From Candidatus Latescibacterota bacterium (lineage in GTDB: Bacteria; Latescibacterota; UBA2968; GCA-2709665), in NCBI GenBank assembly GCA_965237675.1, contig OZ250150.1, positions 3,168,001 through 3,232,000 of the forward strand: a DNA stretch of 64,000 nucleotides, written 5' to 3'. Positions within the stretch are counted from its first letter, which is position 1; every line of letters begins with the position of its first letter. This document shows positions 6,720 through 59,761 of this stretch, one piece after another. The translations under genes were made by a program, and so were the position numbers. The notes under the pieces are model-generated. The model was not told where the DNA came from and did no database searches. It saw only the letters and a list, made by a program, of their open reading frames with translations.

Positions 6720-8087
6720 ATGGCATCTGCTAAGGACACGGCAATCGAAGTGGTTCGACGCCTTCACGCACGGGGGTTCCGTGCGTTGCTGGCCGGCGGG
6801 TGCGTGCGAGACCTCTTGCTTGGGCGGGAACCCCGGGACTACGATGTCGCGACCGATGCCGATCCCCAACAGGTGATCGGCATTTTTCGCCATGCGCAGC
6901 CTGTGGGCGCACACTTTGGCGTGGTGGAAGTGCGGCTGGACGGGCACGTCTTCGAGGTTGCCCGTTTCCGGCGTGATCTGGGCTACAGCGATGGACGGCA
7001 TCCCGACGCGGTCGTCTTTACAGATGAAACTGAGGATGCCCGGCGTCGGGATTTCACCGTGAACGGAATGTTCTGGGACCCCCTGGCGGATCGGGTGCTG
7101 GATTACGTGGGCGGACAGGCGGATTTGAAGGAGAGAGTGATCCGGACCATCGGCCCCGCCGAGGACCGGTTCACGGAAGACCGCCTGCGAATGATGCGGG
7201 CGTTGCGGTTCGGTTGTCGCTTCCACTGGCGGATCGATCGATCGACGTTTGCGGCGATCCGGCGTATGAGCCCAAACCTCGCGGACGTCAGCAGAGAACG
7301 CATCAGGGACGAATTTTCCAGGATGTTAACCGAAGGGGGCGCGCCTCTCGGCGTGCGATGGTTGATCGATACCGGGTTGATGGTCGAGGTCGTACCGGAG
7401 ATACTGGCCCTCGACGGGGTCGCGCAGCCCCCGGAATTTCATCCGGAAGGCGACGTGTTGACCCACACGTTGATAATGCTGGGGTTGATGCGCAATCCGT
7501 CCAAGGAACTGGCGATGGCCGTCCTGTTGCACGATGTGGGCAAACCGCGTACGTTCAAGTCAGCGGACCGTATTCGCTTTGACAATCACGCCCTCGTGGG
7601 CGCCCAGATGACCGACACGATATGTCGCAGGCTGCGGTTTTCCAGGGAGTCGACCCGTCACATCGTTCGACTGGTGGCGGACCATCACCGTTTTATGCAC
7701 GTAAGGGTGATGCGCAAGAGCAGGTTGAAGCGGTTTTTGCGCACGGAGCGGTTTGAAGAACACCTGGAACTGCACCGGGTCGACTGTTTATCCAGCCACC
7801 GTAATCTGGAGAATTACGGATTCTGTCGGCAGGCCCTTGAATCATTGGAGCCCGAGGAAATACGCCCGGAGCCATTGATCACCGGTCGGGATCTGATCGA
7901 GCTCGGATATCCGCCCGGACCGGCCTTCAAGACCGCGCTGAGGGCTGTGGAAGACGGCCAGCTTGAAGGCCGCGTGAAGGATCGTGAAGACGCTTTGCTG
8001 CTCGCTCGGGGAATGTTCGAGAGGGGCACGGAGTCCCGGTGCGGAAACCCGTCGGATAGTGGATCCGCTTCGGGGTCACCCGGTTAG
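6720..8087 (+). CDS. cca: CCA tRNA nucleotidyltransferase with HD domain
   Basis: GGCVRDLLLG..DYDVAT, RRDFTVN, EDRLRMMR, HPEGDVLTHT...LLHDVGK. Confidence 0.9.
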   Translation: MASAKDTAIEVVRRLHARGFRALLAGGCVRDLLLGREPRDYDVATDADPQQVIGIFRHAQPVGAHFGVVEVRLDGHVFEVARFRRDLGYSDGRHPDAVVFTDETEDARRRDFTVNGMFWDPLADRVLDYVGGQADLKERVIRTIGPAEDRFTEDRLRMMRALRFGCRFHWRIDRSTFAAIRRMSPNLADVSRERIRDEFSRMLTEGGAPLGVRWLIDTGLMVEVVPEILALDGVAQPPEFHPEGDVLTHTLIMLGLMRNPSKELAMAVLLHDVGKPRTFKSADRIRFDNHALVGAQMTDTICRRLRFSRESTRHIVRLVADHHRFMHVRVMRKSRLKRFLRTERFEEHLELHRVDCLSSHRNLENYGFCRQALESLEPEEIRPEPLITGRDLIELGYPPGPAFKTALRAVEDGQLEGRVKDREDALLLARGMFERGTESRCGNPSDSGSASGSPG

Positions 8088-51103: not shown

Positions 51104-53193
51104 GTGAACGATCGTATCGAATTGGCGCGGACGTGGGCGGGACGTTTACCGATGTGATTCTCGTTGACAACGACGGGCATATCTGGACGCACAAAATACC
51201 CTCCACGCCGCCGGATTTCGAGCGGGCGGTATTGAACGCCATTGGGCATCTGTTGCACGAGGCCGCCGTACCGGGCGCCTCGATTCGGGACGTCGCGCAC
51301 GGCACCACGGTGGCGACCAACGCCGTCCTGGAGCACCGCGGCGCGAGGACGGCGTTGATTACCACGCGGGGTTTTCGCGACGTACTGGAATTGCGGCGGG
51401 TCAGGGCGCCGCAGATGTACGACTTGTTCTTCGACAAACCCGAACCGCTCGTGGACCGTTACCTGCGGTTCGAGGTCACGGAGCGCATCGCCGCCGACGG
51501 TGAAGTGCTGATTCCCTTAGACAAAACCGAACTCGAGGCGGTCAAAGCGGCGCTGACGCTGGAACAGGTGGAGTCGATTGCGGTGTGTACCCTTCATTCC
51601 TACGCGTTTCCGCGCCACGAACGTGCCATAGAGGCGTTTCTCAGAGACGCGTTGCCGGAGGTGCCGGTGTCTCTATCGTCGGAGATTCTACCGGAACGAC
51701 GGGAGTACGAACGCACTGCGACCACGGTCCTGAACGCCTATGTGCGCCCGGTGATGGAGCGTTATCTCCGGGCGATGCGGCGTGGTCTGCGAGAGCGAGG
51801 GATTCAGGCGCCGCTTCTGATTATGCAGTCCGCGGGCGGCCTGACGCCGGAAGCCGATGCGGCCCGGCGGCCCGTATATATTCTGGAATCCGGCCCGGCG
51901 GCGGGGGTTTTTGCGGCGCGTTTCGCAGGAGAGCGGCTGGGTATCGAGGACCTTATCACATTCGATATGGGAGGGACGACGGCGAAGGCGTCGATCGTTG
52001 AAGGCGGGGAGATTTACTACAGCCCGGAATACGAGGTCGGCGCATCCGTATCGGCGGGAAACAGATTGGTGGGCGGGGGCGGCGAGTTGATCCGGGCGCC
52101 GAGTATTGATATCGCGGAGGTGGGATCCGGCGGGGGCAGCGTGGCCTACCTGGACCGGGCGGGCGGGTTGCGGGTCGGACCCAGAAGCGCGGGCGCGGTG
52201 CCGGGGCCGGCCTGTTACGGCCGCGGGGGAGGTGAACCTACCGTAACCGACGCCAATGTGGTGCTGGGATATATCCGGCCGGGTGAACTGGCCGACGGCG
52301 AGGTTTCCGTAGACCCCGAGGCCGCACGAAGGGTCGTGCAAGATCGGATCGCGAAACCTCTGGGCATGGATCTGCTTGAGGCCGCCGAGGGCATCCACCG
52401 GATTGCCAATGCCCGGTCCATGCGGGCGTTGCGTGCCGTGTCCACCGAGCGGGGACGTGACCCGAGGGCATTCTCCCTGATCGTATTCGGTGGATCAGGG
52501 CCGATCCACGCGGCTGGCCTTGCCATGGAGTTACTCAGTCCGAGAGTCATCGTTCCGCCGTTGCCAGGGTTGTTCAGCGCGCTGGGACTTCTGTTCTCGG
52601 GCGTGGAACACCACGAAGTGTTCAGCTGCCTTCTCTCGGGCGACGGCTTGAACGCCGCAGCGCTGGGCGGCATTCAGTCGGATCTGAAACAGAAGATGCT
52701 GGCCCGGTTCGAGGCGGAGGGCTATTCCTCCGGACAGGTGGTATTGAACGACAGCGTCGACGTGCGCTTCAGAGGCCAAGCTTCGGAGATCCGCATTGCT
52801 GTGTCTGAATTCCCTGCGACTGACGCGGGCGTTCGGGGAGTTTGCGAAGCATTCGAACAGGAGCACCGGCGGCTGTACGGCCATTCGTCCGAACCCGACA
52901 ACCCTGTTGAGGTGGTTGCCGTTCGCCTGATCGGCAAAGCTGCCCTGGGCGGCCGGAGCCGGCAAATAAGGGCCGCGCAGCGGGGGGGCCGGAAGATGTC
53001 TGGCCGTATGGCGTATTTCGGAAAGGCATGGGGATCGGTGGAGACGCCCGTAGTCGACCGGGCCGACCTGACGGAGCCCCGACACGGACCCCTTCTGATT
53101 GATGAGTACGACACCACGATTGTGGTGCCTCCGGAAATGCGCGTGTACCGCGATGCGCAGGACTACTTGGTACTGGAAGGAAACAGCACGTAG
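51100..53193 (+). CDS. Hydantoinase/oxoprolinase subunit A (ATP-binding)
   Basis: DVGGTFTD, HGTTVATN, REYER, SGPAAG, DMGGTT, GSGGGS, PTVTDAN. Confidence 0.93.
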   Translation: MSERSYRIGADVGGTFTDVILVDNDGHIWTHKIPSTPPDFERAVLNAIGHLLHEAAVPGASIRDVAHGTTVATNAVLEHRGARTALITTRGFRDVLELRRVRAPQMYDLFFDKPEPLVDRYLRFEVTERIAADGEVLIPLDKTELEAVKAALTLEQVESIAVCTLHSYAFPRHERAIEAFLRDALPEVPVSLSSEILPERREYERTATTVLNAYVRPVMERYLRAMRRGLRERGIQAPLLIMQSAGGLTPEADAARRPVYILESGPAAGVFAARFAGERLGIEDLITFDMGGTTAKASIVEGGEIYYSPEYEVGASVSAGNRLVGGGGELIRAPSIDIAEVGSGGGSVAYLDRAGGLRVGPRSAGAVPGPACYGRGGGEPTVTDANVVLGYIRPGELADGEVSVDPEAARRVVQDRIAKPLGMDLLEAAEGIHRIANARSMRALRAVSTERGRDPRAFSLIVFGGSGPIHAAGLAMELLSPRVIVPPLPGLFSALGLLFSGVEHHEVFSCLLSGDGLNAAALGGIQSDLKQKMLARFEAEGYSSGQVVLNDSVDVRFRGQASEIRIAVSEFPATDAGVRGVCEAFEQEHRRLYGHSSEPDNPVEVVAVRLIGKAALGGRSRQIRAAQRGGRKMSGRMAYFGKAWGSVETPVVDRADLTEPRHGPLLIDEYDTTIVVPPEMRVYRDAQDYLVLEGNST

Positions 53194-53224
53194 CATTTGT
53201 CGGACGAGGGAGAGACATCGAACG

Positions 53225-54979
53225 ATGCCGGAAACCGATCCCATAACGCGCGAGATTATGCAGAACGCGCTTGCGGCTGTCGCCGACGAGATGAGCGCCG
53301 CGCTCTACCGCACGGCCTATTCCACCATTGTGCGCGACTGCCTGGACTATTCCACGTCGTTGTGCAACGCGGAAGGGCAGATGATTGCGCAGGGTGTCAC
53401 GATTCCGCTGCATCTGGGGTCGGTTCCGTATGCCATGGCCGCCCTGTTTGAACGCTACGGCGACGAGATTGACCCCGGTGACGTCTTTATTCTGAACGAT
53501 CCTTTCGACGGCGGGATGCATATCCCGGATATTTTTATTGTGCGGCCGATTTTCTGGGAAGGCGAGCGGGTGGCCTTTGCGGTGAGCACGGCGCATCACC
53601 TGGACCTGGGGGGACGGTTGCCCGGCAGTTCGGCGTGCGATAACACGGAGATCTTTCAGGAAGGGATTCGCATTCCGTGGTTGAAGCTCTATCGCCGGGG
53701 CGAACCGGACGAGTCCATTTTCGCCCTGATCCGGGCGAATGTGCGGGTGCCGCAGATGACGATCGGGGATATCAGGGCGCAGTTGGCAGCCTGCCACATC
53801 GGGGAGCGGGCGGTGCATTCGTTAATTGAACGATACGGCCTGGATACGATTGTGGCGTGCGCAGATGATCTGATCGACTATACGGAGCGGTTGGTACGCT
53901 CGGAGATTGCGTCCTGGCCCGATGGATCCCATACCTTCACCGATTATCTGGATAGCGATGGCGTGGGCGGCCCGAGGGTTCGAATTCGGGTGACAGTGAC
54001 CGTACGGGGGGATTCGCTCACCGCCGATTTTACGGGTACGGACCCGCAGGTGCGGGGGGCGGTCAACAGCACGCTCTCGTTTACGGCAGCCGTGGTGGCA
54101 CTGTGCGTGCGCGCCGTGATGCGGGAGGAGATTCCGAACACGGAAGGGATGTTCCGGCCGCTGGAGATCATCGCGCCCGAGGGAACGCTCGTGAATGTGC
54201 GGATGCCCGGCGCGTCGTCGATGCGCGGCGTGACGGGGTTTCGGATGGCGGACGCGGTCTTCGGGGCGCTGGCCGGGCTGCTCCCCGACCGGGTGCTGGC
54301 GGCGGGCGAGGGCGGCAATACGCTGGTGATAATCGGCGGCCAACGTCAGGACCGGTCGCCCTACGTTTACTATGAGTTGCTCTCCGGAACCTGGGGCGCA
54401 CGGCCGGATCGGGACGGGAACGACGGTTTGTGCAATCCGGCGAACGTGGCCAGCAATATTCCCATTGAACAGGCGGAATGCGAATACCCTGTCAGAATCG
54501 ACCGGTACGGGCTGGTTTGCGACAGCGGGGGTGCGGGACGATATCGGGGCGGGATGGCGATCGAGCGGGAGTGGACGCTGCTGTCGGGCGAGGCGCACCT
54601 GGCGATTCGGTCCGATCGAAGAGACCATCTGCCGTACGGATTGTATGGGGGCGGGCCGGCGACGGGATCGAACAACGTGCTTTATTTTAAAGATGGCAGT
54701 AGAGTGTTGCCGACGATGATTTCAACCACGATGTCGGCCGGTGAGCGAATCTACCACCGCCAGGCGGGTGGAGGCGGATGGGGCGATCCGATGGAACGGG
54801 ACCCCGCGGTCGTCGCGCGGGACGTGAAGAACGGGAAGGTGTCTGTGAAACAGGCGCGGGATCAGTACGGCGTGGTGTTGGACCCCGGGAACCTCACGGT
54901 GTGCGAGAGGGAAACCACGAACACGCGACAACGAATGGCGGCGCATGATGCCGGGCGGGATCGTCGGGATTCGGGTTGA
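53225..54979 (+). CDS. Hydantoinase B/oxoprolinase subunit
   Basis: RTAYST, NDPF.GG.H.PD, HH.D.GG, EG, DFTG, DSGGAGRYRGG, GGGGWGDP. Confidence 0.93.
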   Translation: MPETDPITREIMQNALAAVADEMSAALYRTAYSTIVRDCLDYSTSLCNAEGQMIAQGVTIPLHLGSVPYAMAALFERYGDEIDPGDVFILNDPFDGGMHIPDIFIVRPIFWEGERVAFAVSTAHHLDLGGRLPGSSACDNTEIFQEGIRIPWLKLYRRGEPDESIFALIRANVRVPQMTIGDIRAQLAACHIGERAVHSLIERYGLDTIVACADDLIDYTERLVRSEIASWPDGSHTFTDYLDSDGVGGPRVRIRVTVTVRGDSLTADFTGTDPQVRGAVNSTLSFTAAVVALCVRAVMREEIPNTEGMFRPLEIIAPEGTLVNVRMPGASSMRGVTGFRMADAVFGALAGLLPDRVLAAGEGGNTLVIIGGQRQDRSPYVYYELLSGTWGARPDRDGNDGLCNPANVASNIPIEQAECEYPVRIDRYGLVCDSGGAGRYRGGMAIEREWTLLSGEAHLAIRSDRRDHLPYGLYGGGPATGSNNVLYFKDGSRVLPTMISTTMSAGERIYHRQAGGGGWGDPMERDPAVVARDVKNGKVSVKQARDQYGVVLDPGNLTVCERETTNTRQRMAAHDAGRDRRDSG

Positions 54980-55004
54980 CTGATAACGGAAAGCAGGATA
55001 TATT
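54976..55004 (+). promoter_or_regulatory. Putative promoter of ankyrin gene 1
   Basis: TTGACT-N17-TATATT; the -35 overlaps the upstream stop codon. Confidence 0.55.
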
Positions 55005-55048
55005 TTGGTAACTGGAATCTTCCCTGATATCAAAATCGGAGTTGGGCG

Positions 55049-55885
55049 ATGTCCTGGACGATAAGACGATTCGCTGTGTTGTTGATGTTGTTGGGCACGA
55101 CGGGCTGCGGCGCCTCGTTGTTGGAACTGTCGAAACGTGGAGACCTGCAGGCGGTAGAGCAGGCGTTGCAACGTGGAAGCAACGTGAATGCCAGGACGGT
55201 TCAGGGGCACAGCCCGTTGACTCTGGCGGCACGGGAGGGCCACCTGGCGGTCGTTCAGGCCCTGATTCAGGCCGGCGCGGATCCGGACGCTGTGGCGTGG
55301 TCATTAAGCACACATCCGCGCCCCCGTGCATTTCGCCACCAGGGGTCCGAACTTACGAGGGAACGTTTCGTGAACGCCGACAGTTCCGGGCCGCAGTCCA
55401 GGTTTATGGCCGAGCGTACCGAAATCGATGTGGTCTGGGTGCTGAAAGATGGGAAAACACCCCTGATGCTCGCCGCCGAAAGGGGTCACCTGGATGTGGT
55501 TGAAGCGCTGGTCGATAACGGCGCCGATGTGCGGTTGACAAGCGGCGGCTATTGGGCGCTCGACACAAAGCCTGATAGGGAGAACTTCGACTTTTCTGCT
55601 TACCCGAGTGTTCCCCAGCCTCGAGATCCTGGCGACGTCTCTGGCCATTTCCTTCAACACAGCCGCTATTATGGCCATGAATCTTATGAATACGGCGACT
55701 ACGTTGAAACGGAAGACGCCTCTGGCAAACTCTCCGCCAGTGCGTTTCATGGTTATCCCCGGCGGTTTTACGACTCGCCGGACAGAAAGACGGCACGGGA
55801 TCTGGCGTATGAGTACGGGCATGTGGACATCGTCGATTTTCTTCGAAAAGCCATCCGGAGGAGGCCTGCATCGAGTTCAAGATAG
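55049..55885 (+). CDS. Ankyrin-repeat lipoprotein with long loop insertions (paralog 1)
   Basis: Lipobox-like TTGC; GHSPLTLAAREGHL..., GKTPLMLAAERGHL..., RKTARDLA..GH. Confidence 0.88.
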   Translation: MSWTIRRFAVLLMLLGTTGCGASLLELSKRGDLQAVEQALQRGSNVNARTVQGHSPLTLAAREGHLAVVQALIQAGADPDAVAWSLSTHPRPRAFRHQGSELTRERFVNADSSGPQSRFMAERTEIDVVWVLKDGKTPLMLAAERGHLDVVEALVDNGADVRLTSGGYWALDTKPDRENFDFSAYPSVPQPRDPGDVSGHFLQHSRYYGHESYEYGDYVETEDASGKLSASAFHGYPRRFYDSPDRKTARDLAYEYGHVDIVDFLRKAIRRRPASSSR

Positions 55886-56197
55886 GACCCTGGAGTGGTC
55901 TTTTCCGTTGGAGATTCGGTCTCGTAAGATCTTTACCTTGCGAGGCCGTCTTGTTGATGTGGGTGAGTTGTGTCCATGGAGTTCATTATTACAGGGTTGT
56001 TGGTCTAACCATAATATAATACAATGACTTGAGTAAGGAAACTGCTTTTCTTGTGAATAATTCGGGCTCGGTCAACGAAGCATGATAATGAAATTCACAC
56101 TTTTGATCTTACATCTGGCATGGAAGTGGACCCCGTCTTCGGTGTTTATCCAGGGCCGCAGGCAGTTCGTATATGGTCGGGGCGGTTGAGATACGGA

Positions 56198-56225
56198 TTG
56201 ACTTAAGGGACGAAGGGGGTATATT
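56198..56225 (+). promoter_or_regulatory. Putative promoter of ankyrin gene 2
   Basis: TTGACT-N16-TATATT. Confidence 0.5.
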
Positions 56226-56273
56226 CTCGATCAGAACGAGCAGTCAAAAAACGATTCGCAGCGGAGGCGGCCA

Positions 56274-56996
56274 ATGTCTCGAACGATCAAGCCATTTGCA
56301 TTTCTGTTGATCGTGATGGGTGTGGGGGGTTGCGGCGCCTCGTTGATGGAATTGTCACAGCGCGGAGACCTGCAAGCCGTGCAGCGGGCGTTGCACGATG
56401 GACACGACGTGAATGCCAGGACGGTTCAGGGGCAAAGCCCGCTGACGCTGGCGGCCAGGGAAGGGCACCTGGACGTAGTCCGGGCGTTGATTCAGGCCGG
56501 TGCGGAACTGGATGTCAGGGCCTGGACTATAGGCGCAAATTCGCGTACGCGCATCTACCGCCATCTGGCTCCAGAGCTTACCCGAGAGCGGTTCGTAAAT
56601 GTCGACAGTTCCGGACCTCAGTCCCTGTTCATGGCGCAGCGTTCCCGTGACCACGCCAACCTTGCGCTGAGAGACGGGAAAACGGCGCTGATGTTCGCCG
56701 CTGAGAGGGGGCACGTGGAGATCGTCAAAGCGCTGATCCAGGCAGGCGCGGACGTGCGTAAAAAAAGTGGCTCTACTCGAAGTCGTCTTTATGATCGTCG
56801 TGGACACGCCGGTGTCGACGCAAACAGCCGCACGCCTAAGAGGATCGGATATCTTAATCGTACGTATCCCCAACAGGTTCACGATTCGCCGGACAGAAAA
56901 ACCGCACAGGATTTGGCTTACGAGAATGGGCATATGGATATCGTGAATCTTCTAATAAAGGCCGACCTGCGGTTGCTTGAAGGGAGCAACAGGTAA
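56274..56996 (+). CDS. Ankyrin-repeat lipoprotein with long loop insertions (paralog 2)
   Basis: Lipobox VGGC; same ankyrin scaffold as paralog 1. GGAGG RBS. Confidence 0.88.
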   Translation: MSRTIKPFAFLLIVMGVGGCGASLMELSQRGDLQAVQRALHDGHDVNARTVQGQSPLTLAAREGHLDVVRALIQAGAELDVRAWTIGANSRTRIYRHLAPELTRERFVNVDSSGPQSLFMAQRSRDHANLALRDGKTALMFAAERGHVEIVKALIQAGADVRKKSGSTRSRLYDRRGHAGVDANSRTPKRIGYLNRTYPQQVHDSPDRKTAQDLAYENGHMDIVNLLIKADLRLLEGSNR

Positions 56997-57115
56997 GTGC
57001 TTTCAGTATTGGTGCCAGGTGTCGGGACGGTCTCGTAATGGCGTTACCTTGCGAGACTGTTTTTTTACGTATGGGCGAGTTGGTTCCATCAGGTTCGCGA
57101 ATCGAAAGAAATACC

Positions 57116-58705
57116 ATGGATATGGTGATTTCGGGCGGGACGGTAGTTGACGGTACGGGTAGCCCGCCGGTCCGGGCCGACGTGGCCGTGGCCGACGGCC
57201 GGATCGTCGACGTCGGCCGGTTCCGGCGGCCGGAGGGCGTACCGTGTGTGGATGCGGCCGGCTGCTACGTGGCGCCCGGGTTTATCGATATTCACAGTCA
57301 TTCCGATTTCACCCTGGTCGTGGACCCGCGGGCGGTGAGTTCGGTCATGCAGGGCGTAACGCTCGAGGTGGTGGGGAATTGCGGGCATGGGTGCGCGCCG
57401 ATTGGCGACCCTGCGCGTGCCAGGTCGAACATATACGGGTGCAGGACCGGGCATGAGATTGACTGGCGTACCGTGGGCGAGTACCTGGATCGCCTGGAGG
57501 CGCAACGCCCGGCCGTAAATGTCATGACGCTGGTGCCCAACGGAAACCTGAGACTGGCGGTCTGCGAAGCCGTGGATCGCCCGTCCACGCCGGACGAACT
57601 CAGAAAGATGAAACGCCTGCTGGCGCAGGGGATGGAAGAGGGGTCCGTGGGGTATTCCACGGGCCTGGAATACGGTCCGGAGCGGGATTGTCCCGAAGAA
57701 GAGATCTCCGAGCTATGTGCGATCGCCGCGGAATACGGCGGGATCTACTCGACCCATACCCGCAACCGTATGGGCGAGGCGGAGGAGACCGTCGCCGAGG
57801 CGATTCGCACGGCCGAAACGGCCGACGCGCCCCTGCAGATCTCGCATATATCGTCCGTGGCCAGGCTCGCTGAAGACGGCCGGTGGGCGGTCGATCGGGC
57901 GCTAGAACAGGTGGACCGGGCGCGCAGGAGCGGGTTGGACGTGCAGTTCGATATGCACACGCGGCTTTTCGGGACCACCAACTTGAGCGCCGCTCTACCC
58001 CCGTGGGCGCTGGAGGGACGTTCAAAAGACATCGCGAGGCGGCTGCGGGATCCATCCTTACGCCGGGAGATGGAAAACTGCCGGAGTATCGTTTCCGCGC
58101 TGGCACGGGGCGACTGGAGTCGGATTGTTATCTTTCACTCGCCAGCGCAGCCGGAGCTTGCGGGGAAGAGTATTGCCGAACTGTCCGCCGCCGGAACCGG
58201 TAACGCCTTTGACGCAATCGCCGATATTCTGCTCGTTGGAATCGACTATCTGCACGAAATTATGGTGATCGCGTTCAGTTATTGCGAGGCGGACGTGCGG
58301 CCGGCATTCGAACACCCGTTCTGCATGGTCGGGTCCGACGCGACCGCGCTGGCCGCGGACGGCCCGTTGAAGGATAATACCTTCCACGGCGCCTATACGT
58401 GGGCATCCTGGTTTTTTCGGCATTTCGTCCGCGAACGGAAGTTGCTCAGCCCGCAGGAGGCCGTGCGCAGGTTGACAACTCTGCCGGCTTCGCGGCTGGG
58501 GTTGACCGACCGCGGTGTGATACGCAAACAGGCGCGGGCGGACCTGGCCATCTTCGATCCGAGCGTGTTTGCCGAGCGAGGCACGACGTTCGAGCCCAAT
58601 CGGACAGCCGCGGGTATGCGGCACGTGCTGGTCAACGGCGGCTTCACAGTAAGGGATGGCGATCTTACGGGACAGCGATTCGGCCAGGTGCTTCGCCGAG
58701 CCTGA
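57116..58705 (+). CDS. N-acyl-D-amino-acid deacylase (D-aminoacylase family)
   Basis: VVDGTG, APGFIDIHSHSD, GNCG, STGLEY, H.R, ISH, GSD, ADLAIFD, VLVNG. Confidence 0.9.
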   Translation: MDMVISGGTVVDGTGSPPVRADVAVADGRIVDVGRFRRPEGVPCVDAAGCYVAPGFIDIHSHSDFTLVVDPRAVSSVMQGVTLEVVGNCGHGCAPIGDPARARSNIYGCRTGHEIDWRTVGEYLDRLEAQRPAVNVMTLVPNGNLRLAVCEAVDRPSTPDELRKMKRLLAQGMEEGSVGYSTGLEYGPERDCPEEEISELCAIAAEYGGIYSTHTRNRMGEAEETVAEAIRTAETADAPLQISHISSVARLAEDGRWAVDRALEQVDRARRSGLDVQFDMHTRLFGTTNLSAALPPWALEGRSKDIARRLRDPSLRREMENCRSIVSALARGDWSRIVIFHSPAQPELAGKSIAELSAAGTGNAFDAIADILLVGIDYLHEIMVIAFSYCEADVRPAFEHPFCMVGSDATALAADGPLKDNTFHGAYTWASWFFRHFVRERKLLSPQEAVRRLTTLPASRLGLTDRGVIRKQARADLAIFDPSVFAERGTTFEPNRTAAGMRHVLVNGGFTVRDGDLTGQRFGQVLRRA

Positions 58706-58759: not shown

Positions 58760-59761
58760 ATGGAACGGAACCCGCTTTCAGGTCGGATAGTTTGGAGGTT
58801 CAGCGGCGACAATCCGGCGGTCGCGCCGGGTCAGCTGCACCCGGATATGGATAGTCGGCGCGCTGGCGCCGCGCATGTTGTGCAGGTCGGAGATCGATAC
58901 CGGATGTATTACTGGGGAACCGGAACGGATGGGTATCATCACATTCTGCTTGCCGAGAGCCACGTGGATGCGCCGAACGACTGGCGGCCGCTGGGCTCCG
59001 TGCTGGACCGGCAGCCCGGCACCGCGTATAACGATCAGGGGCCGGGGTTTCCGTTTGTGGTTCCGGGGGAAGACGGCCCGTGGCTCCTGTATTTCTGCGG
59101 GTGGGGCAAACCCAGGGCGGACGGCAAACTGCCCAATACCACGGGTGTGGCATTCAGCGATGACGGCGGATACCGGTTTGTTTGCCGGCAACGGCAACCG
59201 ATTTTGCCGATGGACCGGGACTGGGACCGCGAGGGAACCGGAAGCGTATTTGTCTTGCACGACGGCGACGGGTACCATATGTATTATACGGCCATCGGTG
59301 CCTATTTCGCCAGGCCCGAGGGCGCCAGGACGGGCCACGGGGATGTGATACCCCGTATAGGGGTCGGTTACGCGGTTTCGGCAGACGGGTTGATATGGAC
59401 CAAACCGCTGAATGGTCTGATGGTTAGACCAAGGGGTTTCGACACCGAACCCTACGAGTACATCTGTTCAAAGCCCTTCGTTTTGCGGGAACCTGAAGGT
59501 TACAGGATGTGGGTGAACACGTTTGGTACGGCCTATCGGATGAGGAGTCTGGTCGGATCCGACGGCCGGGACTGGCGATGGTGCAAAAGCGGATGCGATG
59601 GGGAGTTGGGTGTGGGCGCGCCGGGCGCGTTCGACGACAGACAGCGGTGTTACGTGAGTGTCGTAAAATGCGGCGACGAATATCGGTGTTGGTACACCGG
59701 CAACGGGTTCGGCGCAACGGGGATGGGTTACGCGGTGGGACGGGTTGAGAGTGAGCGATGA
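58760..59761 (+). CDS. Beta-propeller glycoside hydrolase-like protein
   Basis: Repeated 'YRMYYWG / WLLYFCG / YHMYYTA / YRMWV / YRCWYTG' blades with S.DG..W motifs. Confidence 0.7.
   Translation: MERNPLSGRIVWRFSGDNPAVAPGQLHPDMDSRRAGAAHVVQVGDRYRMYYWGTGTDGYHHILLAESHVDAPNDWRPLGSVLDRQPGTAYNDQGPGFPFVVPGEDGPWLLYFCGWGKPRADGKLPNTTGVAFSDDGGYRFVCRQRQPILPMDRDWDREGTGSVFVLHDGDGYHMYYTAIGAYFARPEGARTGHGDVIPRIGVGYAVSADGLIWTKPLNGLMVRPRGFDTEPYEYICSKPFVLREPEGYRMWVNTFGTAYRMRSLVGSDGRDWRWCKSGCDGELGVGAPGAFDDRQRCYVSVVKCGDEYRCWYTGNGFGATGMGYAVGRVESER

Follow-up and report, generated by a model that had tools for sequence, protein, structure and literature searches.

Ankyrin proteins are already well known from sponge symbionts, and among the candidate symbiosis factors of these bacteria they are the best known. 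Amoebal phagocytosis was reportedly addressed earlier by Nguyen et al. 2014, a phage-encoded ankyrin was reportedly described by Jahn et al. 2019, and immunity proteins of the ankyrin type in polymorphic toxin systems are said to have been presented by Zhang et al. 2012. In the present study, two tandem ankyrin genes, open reading frames 1 and 2 (ORF1 and ORF2), were investigated in a window of 64,000 nucleotides, which is the whole stretch of DNA analyzed (contig OZ250150.1, positions 3,168,001 to 3,232,000, Candidatus Latescibacterota bacterium). With a probability of roughly 55%, their products are envelope-anchored putative ankyrin binders in which one finger is constant and the other class-specific. 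They would be members of a small family of ankyrin proteins with four repeats, an export signal, and a lipid anchor, a family that occurs in one genus and, in a shorter form, in a sister genus.

The closest described systems were compared with this locus. Single eukaryotic-like proteins (ELPs), among them ankyrin proteins, enable bacteria to avoid phagocytosis by the sponge (PMC13747020). Like the ELPs of sponge symbionts, ORF1 and ORF2 encode ankyrin proteins, and the genome of the window is ankyrin-rich. Their family departs from the ELPs in its lipobox, in the invariant DSSGPQS motif, in two finger inserts that are 21-74 amino acids (aa) long, and in the fixed slot of its polymorphic tandem array. 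LoopDARPins, which are derived from designed ankyrin repeat proteins (DARPins), have an extended loop at an ankyrin finger position, which protrudes and complements the concave surface (PMC5405424). ORF1 and ORF2 resemble them in their modeled scaffold, whose fingers likewise carry extended loops. However, LoopDARPins are synthetic and have one randomized loop, whereas ORF1 and ORF2 have two natural and much longer inserts, one of them invariant and the other in five conserved forms. Furthermore, the loop hypervariability on a constant scaffold that marks LoopDARPins was not found here; the scaffold co-diverged with the loop.

In addition, Bd3460 of Bdellovibrio bacteriovorus is a small periplasmic ankyrin self-protection protein that has an export signal and acts in the cell envelope, where it binds other proteins (PMC4686830). 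Its six repeats are regular, its fingers are short, its signal peptide is a plain one, and its gene adjoins that of the target endopeptidase (PMC4686830). Unlike Bd3460, ORF1 and ORF2 had no such linked enzyme or toxin gene among the five flanking genes scanned. The locus was similar to the ankyrin-type immunity genes of polymorphic toxins in its diversified ankyrin array and lineage-specific turnover, and differed from them in that these five genes included no toxin gene and that no sheath gene of a type VI secretion system (T6SS) was found. No description of an ankyrin family of lipoproteins that combines two long finger inserts, an invariant DSSGPQS finger, and a polymorphic array was found in a full-text literature search, which covered the sources at abstract level.

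Tandem genes for two putative ankyrin lipoproteins

The two genes lie head to tail on the forward strand. Their products shared 141 of 281 positions (50% identity, E 2e-85, BLASTP), and the alignment contained a single 44-column gapped block, at insert 2, which held the whole length difference. Both genes had a sigma-70-like promoter site with 10 of the 12 consensus positions (the region contained 5 such sites, against 1.1 +/- 0.9 in shuffles), and a ribosome-binding site stood 7 nt (GGAG, ORF1) or 6 nt (GGAGG, ORF2) upstream of the ATG. The lipoboxes were TTGC in ORF1 and VGGC in ORF2, and both N-termini satisfied the PROSITE PS51257-type rule, which requires basic residues in the n-region, hydrophobic ones in the h-region, and a lipobox whose final Cys lies at position 15-35. 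The initial annotation, which had described two paralogs with a promoter and a lipobox each, was confirmed in this respect. Across the family, the lipobox rule was passed by 53 of 59 sequences; three of the six failures had truncated or replaced N-termini and three were off by one residue. Moreover, Cys20 was at least 90% conserved in the family alignment, and signal peptidase II was present in the genome (Peptidase_A8 match to LspA, 133 bits). From the lipobox rule and the presence of LspA, we infer that ORF1 and ORF2 would be lipidated.

The ankyrin Pfam models used were PF00023 (Ank) and PF12796 (Ank_2). ORF1 matched Ank with E 1.3e-23 and 82.2 bits and ORF2 with E 4.8e-24 and 83.5 bits (cut-off 21.1), and the scores for Ank_2 were 68 and 77.1 bits, respectively (cut-off 27.3). 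In the AlphaFold2 models, predicted with family alignments as input, each protein had four helix pairs, with a block-mean predicted local distance difference test score (pLDDT) mostly of 84-98. Both inserts were located at the finger positions flanking repeat 3, between helix pairs 2/3 and 3/4, which was in agreement with the earlier description of about four ankyrin-like units broken by two long inserts. The best compact Foldseek match was 1n0r, a 4-repeat consensus ankyrin, with a template modeling (TM) score of 0.89 normalized to the target. The other matches were consensus ankyrins and DARPins, and the LoopDARPin chain 4k5c_B at rank 16 reflected the common ankyrin fold only. A profile search of the PDB aligned ankyrin repeat positions only, with no alignment to the inserts.

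The initial annotation had pointed out that symbionts often carry expanded ankyrin families, and the genome of the window contained about 17 ankyrin ORFs, derived from 33 Ank_2 matches. A scan with the PADLOC and NCBIfam defense-system models gave matches to MzaA, PDC-M72A, and Legionella Ank effectors only below threshold or over the ankyrin repeats, far under the curated cut-offs where a cut-off exists. An identity with any of these was rejected, and the matches were read as generic ankyrin similarity.

The constrained insert 1 and the class-specific insert 2

Fifteen genomes of the same genus were counted, i.e., that of the window (G000) and 14 relatives (G008, G012, etc.). At E<=1e-10, the family was matched in 14 of the 14 other same-genus genomes and in two of two sister-genus genomes, there by weaker and shorter matches, and in none of 44 further relatives. 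Among 5.8 billion protein clusters, about 42 family proteins (E<=2.4e-48) were set apart from generic ankyrins. From 185,579 species genomes, 78 loci were kept, of which five were family members at >=48% identity, and the rest had <=36%. The full-length family was not found outside the genus in the 44 further relatives, the two sister-genus genomes, and the protein and species-genome collections. A phage origin was considered and rejected, as no family member was found in viral contigs; the four loci there were all generic ankyrins (28-50% identity). The depositors labeled the genomes of one genus (including loci L053-L057) as either Gemmatimonadota or Candidatus Latescibacterota, and the phylum name is unsettled because these labels disagree.

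According to the signature of insert 2, 58 of the 59 aligned sequences were sorted into five classes, with one fragment excluded. Class I comprised 19 sequences (about 279 aa, in 13/15 genomes), class II, to which ORF1 belongs, 14 sequences (266-278 aa, in 4/15), class III 11 sequences (265 aa, in 3/15), class IV 11 sequences (225 aa, in 4/15), and class V, to which ORF2 belongs, three sequences (240 aa, in 2/15). The ORF1 ortholog in G012 (L045:7044-7889, also P0025) had a replaced N-terminus that lacked the signal peptide and lipobox, and may be a decaying or relocalized copy.

Insert 1 is under stronger constraint than any other part of the protein. It had 48 aa, with a tip core of RERFVN-x-DSSGPQS-x-FM, and 10 of its 49 alignment columns were invariant in 58 family sequences (N109, D111-S117, F119, and M120). 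Hence the core reported earlier, ELTRERFVN.DSSGPQS.FMA.R, was recovered in both proteins and extended over the family with ten invariant columns. The ratio of nonsynonymous to synonymous substitutions (dN/dS) in this core was 0.02-0.05 in classes I-III, which was the lowest in the protein, compared with 0.16-0.21 in the scaffold, and was 0.15 in class IV. In the model, insert 1 formed a two-stranded beta-stalk (ORF1 strands 83-90 and 128-136), and its tip, residues 94-116 of ORF1, had a pLDDT below 50. The sister-genus homologs, a short three-repeat form (L048 ~7585-8034 in G021, and L022 in G018), kept insert 1 with the motif and ended after repeat 3, without insert 2 or repeat 4. From this retention and the constraint on the motif, it follows that insert 1 is the ancestral, family-defining feature. 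The G021 copy had an in-frame TAG inside insert 1.

The search for relatives of insert 1 outside the family was negative. With 51 residues, phmmer gave six matches at E<=1e-3 among 1.84 billion representatives; four were family members, and no true relative beyond the family was detected. The two other matches, long PKD or PA14 repeat proteins, were matched in 6 and 4 stretches, and were read as chance matches boosted by repeats. Further, a search of the ESM Atlas with insert 1 or insert 2 gave no usable match.

Insert 2 had 74 aa, a net charge of -5, and 14/74 aromatic residues in ORF1, and 36 aa and a net charge of +6 in ORF2. These values were in line with the opposite charges given in the initial annotation. 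By its own boundaries for the insert ('GADVR..SG.' to 'YP....DSPDRKTA'), the lengths were 68 aa and 30 aa, and the difference of 38 aa, counted from the translations, explained the length difference between the proteins as claimed. The insert was also confined within fixed boundaries, as had been expected, with G166 invariant and R239, T248, and A249 >=90% conserved. Within these edges, 0 of the 74 columns were invariant family-wide, and the length of the insert ranged from 21 to 74 aa. The mean net charge by class was -6.3 (I), -2.7 (II), -0.6 (III), +4.2 (IV), and +6 (V).

The two copies of insert 2 had further been called unrelated. This held for the cores, because the profiles of classes II and V gave E 0.49, which did not surpass the reversed control (0.048). 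It held less for the tail: the last ~100 nt of the tested ORF2 segment, where insert 2 runs into the conserved DSPDRKTA boundary, gave an in-frame alignment of 70.6% with a class II gene. Because of this tail, the insert 2 of ORF2 may be a shortened and diverged derivative. A frameshift origin was examined with translations in the alternate frames and with blastn and tblastx searches of 26 family genes and was rejected, since there was no out-of-frame match beyond the class V copies themselves (G000 and the G008 ortholog). In the profile-profile comparison, the sole match between insert-2 cores was that of classes I and III, which was collinear and marginal (E 0.0043 over 51 columns, reversed control 0.1).

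The fixed boundaries, the lack of invariant columns, the mutually unalignable cores of most classes, and the location at finger positions would all suit a system of the antibody or LoopDARPin type, with a hypervariable insert 2 and an exchange of loops between copies. This had been the proposal of the initial annotation. As it had expected, the divergence was far from uniform along the protein: between classes, insert 2 had 21% identity with 38% of columns gapped, compared with 54-68% identity for the scaffold. However, the identity of insert 2 within classes was 60-100% (mean 75%), compared with 82-89% for scaffold regions, and the 58 sequences contained just five discrete forms, which were conserved among orthologs. 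By the method of Nei-Gojobori, the dN/dS of insert 2 was 0.14 in class I (13 genes), 0.48 in class II (4), 0.26 in class III (3), and 0.20 in class IV (4), and was never >1 in these classes. Furthermore, in a FastTree phylogeny based on scaffold columns with both inserts left out, all five insert-defined classes were clades (Shimodaira–Hasegawa-like support 0.84-0.997), with IV and V as sisters (0.86). The inserts and scaffolds thus diverged together, because the scaffold recovers every class. Judged by these comparisons, insert 2 is a class-defining conserved element and not a hypervariable loop. Both the hypervariability and the exchange of loops between scaffolds had to be abandoned as claims, the visible exchange being at gene scale (see below), and an antibody-like system is very improbable.

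Another explanation is that insert 2 is a functionless, drifting, disordered linker, and that only the scaffold and insert 1 matter. This would agree with the pLDDT below 50 of insert 2 in both models (residues 177-237 in ORF1 and 171-198 in ORF2), the dN/dS of 0.48 in class II, and the sister-genus form that does without insert 2 and repeat 4. The values of the other three classes were near those of the scaffold, and the within-class identity of classes I, III, and IV was 74-83%, which speaks against drift. Moreover, the aromatic content of insert 2 was 12-17% in classes I-IV, which is unusual for a plain disordered linker. A functionless linker is hardly probable on this balance.

The opposite charges of insert 2 might also serve to pair ORF1 with ORF2 in a heterodimer. 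In agreement with this, 9 of the 10 multi-gene genomes combined an acidic class (I or II) with one that is neutral or basic (III, IV, or V). However, this pattern may follow the order of array positions, the two genes have separate promoters, class I stood alone in 5/15 genomes, and classes II and V were found together only in G000. An obligate pair is unlikely, because the combination was present in 1/15 genomes, and the heterodimer as a whole is improbable.

A fixed slot with gene turnover and recombination between species

The array occupied the same slot throughout the genus, with HyuA-HyuB upstream in 14/15 same-genus genomes and an amidohydrolase, a 333-aa ORF, and PhyH downstream in 15/15. 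It contained 1-3 genes per genome, and the class content varied between species. The coordinates of the features are listed in Table 1.

Table 1. Features of the tandem ankyrin locus, with positions in the window unless a locus of a relative is given.
Feature	Position	Strand	Basis
ORF1, class II putative ankyrin lipoprotein, 278 aa	55049..55885	+	translation, BLASTP, Pfam, model
ORF2, class V putative ankyrin lipoprotein, 240 aa	56274..56996	+	translation, BLASTP, Pfam, model
ORF1 promoter-like site, TTGACT-N17-TATATT	54976..55004	+	10/12 consensus positions
ORF2 promoter-like site, TTGACT-N16-TATATT	56198..56225	+	10/12 consensus positions
ORF1 signal peptide and lipobox (…LLGTTG-C20)	55049..55108	+	lipobox rule passed
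ORF1 insert 1, residues 86-133	55304..55447	+	alignment, dN/dS, model
ORF1 insert 1 tip with invariant motif, residues 104-123	55358..55417	+	alignment
ORF2 insert 1 with invariant motif, residues 86-133	56529..56672	+	alignment, model
ORF1 insert 2, class II form, residues 167-240	55547..55768	+	alignment, composition, profile comparison, model
ORF2 insert 2, class V form, residues 167-202	56772..56879	+	alignment, composition, profile comparison, model
Terminator-like hairpin after ORF1	55917..55948	+	12 pairs, then T-rich tail
Spacer ORF1-ORF2, 388 bp, scar of ~1.3-kb deletion	55886..56273	.	match to ends of relatives' interval
High-identity tract to G008, carries class V gene	56322..57400	.	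sliding 300-nt windows
Two-gene insert in G012 (equivalents in G003, G004, G005, G007, G008, G011)	L045:8293-9441		

Recombination between species was evident at ORF2. The genomes G000 and G008 were 98-99% identical over the tract with the class V gene and 76-95% identical across 12 kb of flanks, which indicates a recent recombination or introgression between species. Further, ORF2 and its positional counterpart in G012 shared codons 1-30, with proportions of synonymous (pS) and nonsynonymous (pN) differences of 0.19 and 0.03, and codons 259-278 (pS 0.07, pN 0.04), whereas the middle was as far apart as any paralogs (pS 0.36-0.59). Because only both ends are shared, nearly the whole coding body was replaced and not the loop alone. 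The visible exchange is that of whole genes or of most of a gene, and the diverged middle, which reaches far beyond the loop, counts as a further point against loop exchange. A recent conversion of ORF2 repeats 1-2 from class III was also considered. In this part, protein windows were 85-100% identical, and the synonymous differences (0.41-0.45 per site) were not lower than those to other classes, so the conversion was rejected and the similarity was attributed to conservation.

The spacer between the genes was a remnant of a longer interval. Its positions 1-225 and 287/299-358 corresponded to the two ends of a 1.66-kb interval in G008 and G012, and the part deleted in G000 holds, in relatives, a 151-aa ORF and a YHS-thioredoxin-like gene. 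In 7/15 same-genus genomes, these two genes lay inside or beside the ankyrin array. The YHS-thioredoxin-like protein had 227 aa and a YHS domain with an AhpC/TSA-redoxin-thioredoxin fold and was predicted from its sequence to be secreted, and the 151-aa ORF had no Pfam match. The terminator-like hairpin after ORF1 is a weak call, because one such site was found and 2.5 were expected.

A rival explanation arises from this locus. ORF1 and ORF2 may be periplasmic inhibitor-type or immunity-type ankyrins that are anchored in the membrane and neutralize envelope enzymes or toxins of the cell itself or of competitors, and, by analogy with Bd3460 and the immunity ankyrins of polymorphic toxins, each class-specific finger might match a different enzyme or toxin. 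The tandem diverged paralogs, their presence/absence polymorphism, and the recombination between species would agree with it, and such a tandem, polymorphic, recombining pattern resembles orphan immunity arrays. The secreted YHS-thioredoxin-like gene in or near the array would point to an envelope setting. In addition, an export signal is combined with ankyrin repeats, as in Bd3460 (PMC4686830), although the regular repeats and short fingers of that protein are unlike ORF1 and ORF2 (PMC4686830). Moreover, no toxin, peptidoglycan hydrolase, or secretion gene was present among the five flanking genes scanned, the 99.9%-complete genome yielded no T6SS sheath gene (PF05943), and the genes each have their own promoter and form no operon with an enzyme. 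The inhibitor or immunity function is therefore regarded as somewhat unlikely.

Several other observations were made at the locus. A dispersed repeat of ~87 bp lay in the spacer (55982-56068), with 38 matches in its own genome at 76-89% identity. In three metagenome runs, its contig depth was 365-617, compared with 13-60 for the adjoining sequence. It had no Rfam match, no significant fold (z +0.68), and no inverted repeats, and a weak promoter-like site lay within it at 55988-56015. The 333-aa ORF (58760-59761) had 77-93% identity in 15/15 same-genus genomes and no Pfam match at E<=1e-5. The longest HyuB frame begins with TTG at 53099 and overlaps the end of hyuA (stop at 53193), while the Pfam Hydantoinase_B match starts at residue 7 of the translation from 53219 (53219-54979); of the two, 53219, which lies downstream, is probably the real start.

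The region was also compared with other samples. The initial annotation had suggested mapping variation within the population. All runs were assembled contigs, from which rare variants are dropped, and for this reason the variation was compared only between strains. In run X3, the dominant strain differed by 7-11% in ORF1 and by 1.4% in ORF2, and the start of insert 2 in ORF1 (55525-55592) was too diverged for alignment; a minor contig of the same run was identical to the window. The contigs of a second sample (X2), from the study of the best holder and with the identical organism label, were identical across the region, which does not favor an antibody-like diversification. Two contigs from an RNA library, in a run labeled sponge metagenome, covered 55045-55219 (the 5' end of ORF1) and 56432-57020 (most of ORF2) at 97-99% identity and give a weak hint of ORF1 and ORF2 expression. 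The link to sponges is the run label of these contigs, which come from a close relative.

Candidate functions of the two fingers

For the envelope-anchored binders considered here, the following mechanism is proposed. The tip of finger 1 would contact a partner or ligand that all members of the family share, and finger 2 would set the class-specific specificity beside the ankyrin groove. The five forms of finger 2, mostly unalignable between classes, are each held by purifying selection, and the set of classes changes by gene gain and loss and by recombination between species. Candidate targets would be a factor of the sponge host or a protein of the envelope or of a competitor, and, by analogy, the precedent of sponge symbionts favors a host target.

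Several points weigh against this proposal. Both insert tips could be disordered, because their pLDDT was below 50. The predicted lipidation and localization of ORF1 and ORF2 derive from a sequence rule. In class II, the class of ORF1, insert 2 evolved 2.4x faster than the scaffold (dN/dS 0.48 versus 0.20, from 4 genes only), which could be a sign of relaxed constraint. Furthermore, the RNA-library contigs are possibly derived from DNA, and the neighbors of the array have metabolic functions (hydantoinase A and B, amidohydrolase, and PhyH) and give no functional hint.

A more far-reaching version holds that ORF1 and ORF2 are natural two-finger envelope receptors. The invariant finger would dock on a conserved component of a sponge, phage, or competitor, the class-specific finger would pick the variant of the host or partner, and the classes would be kept by frequency-dependent selection and interspecies recombination. 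This version is speculative and rather unlikely. If true, the locus would be a polymorphic symbiont recognition locus, which works on the same principle as the later-engineered LoopDARPins.

The family is a compact test case for specificity, with a fixed scaffold, one invariant loop, and five natural forms of the other. If the loops are not binding determinants, it would be one more lineage-specific ankyrin paralog family. If they are, swapping loops between the natural classes would test the choice of partner directly, and the invariant DSSGPQS finger would define a new and conserved module for interactions.

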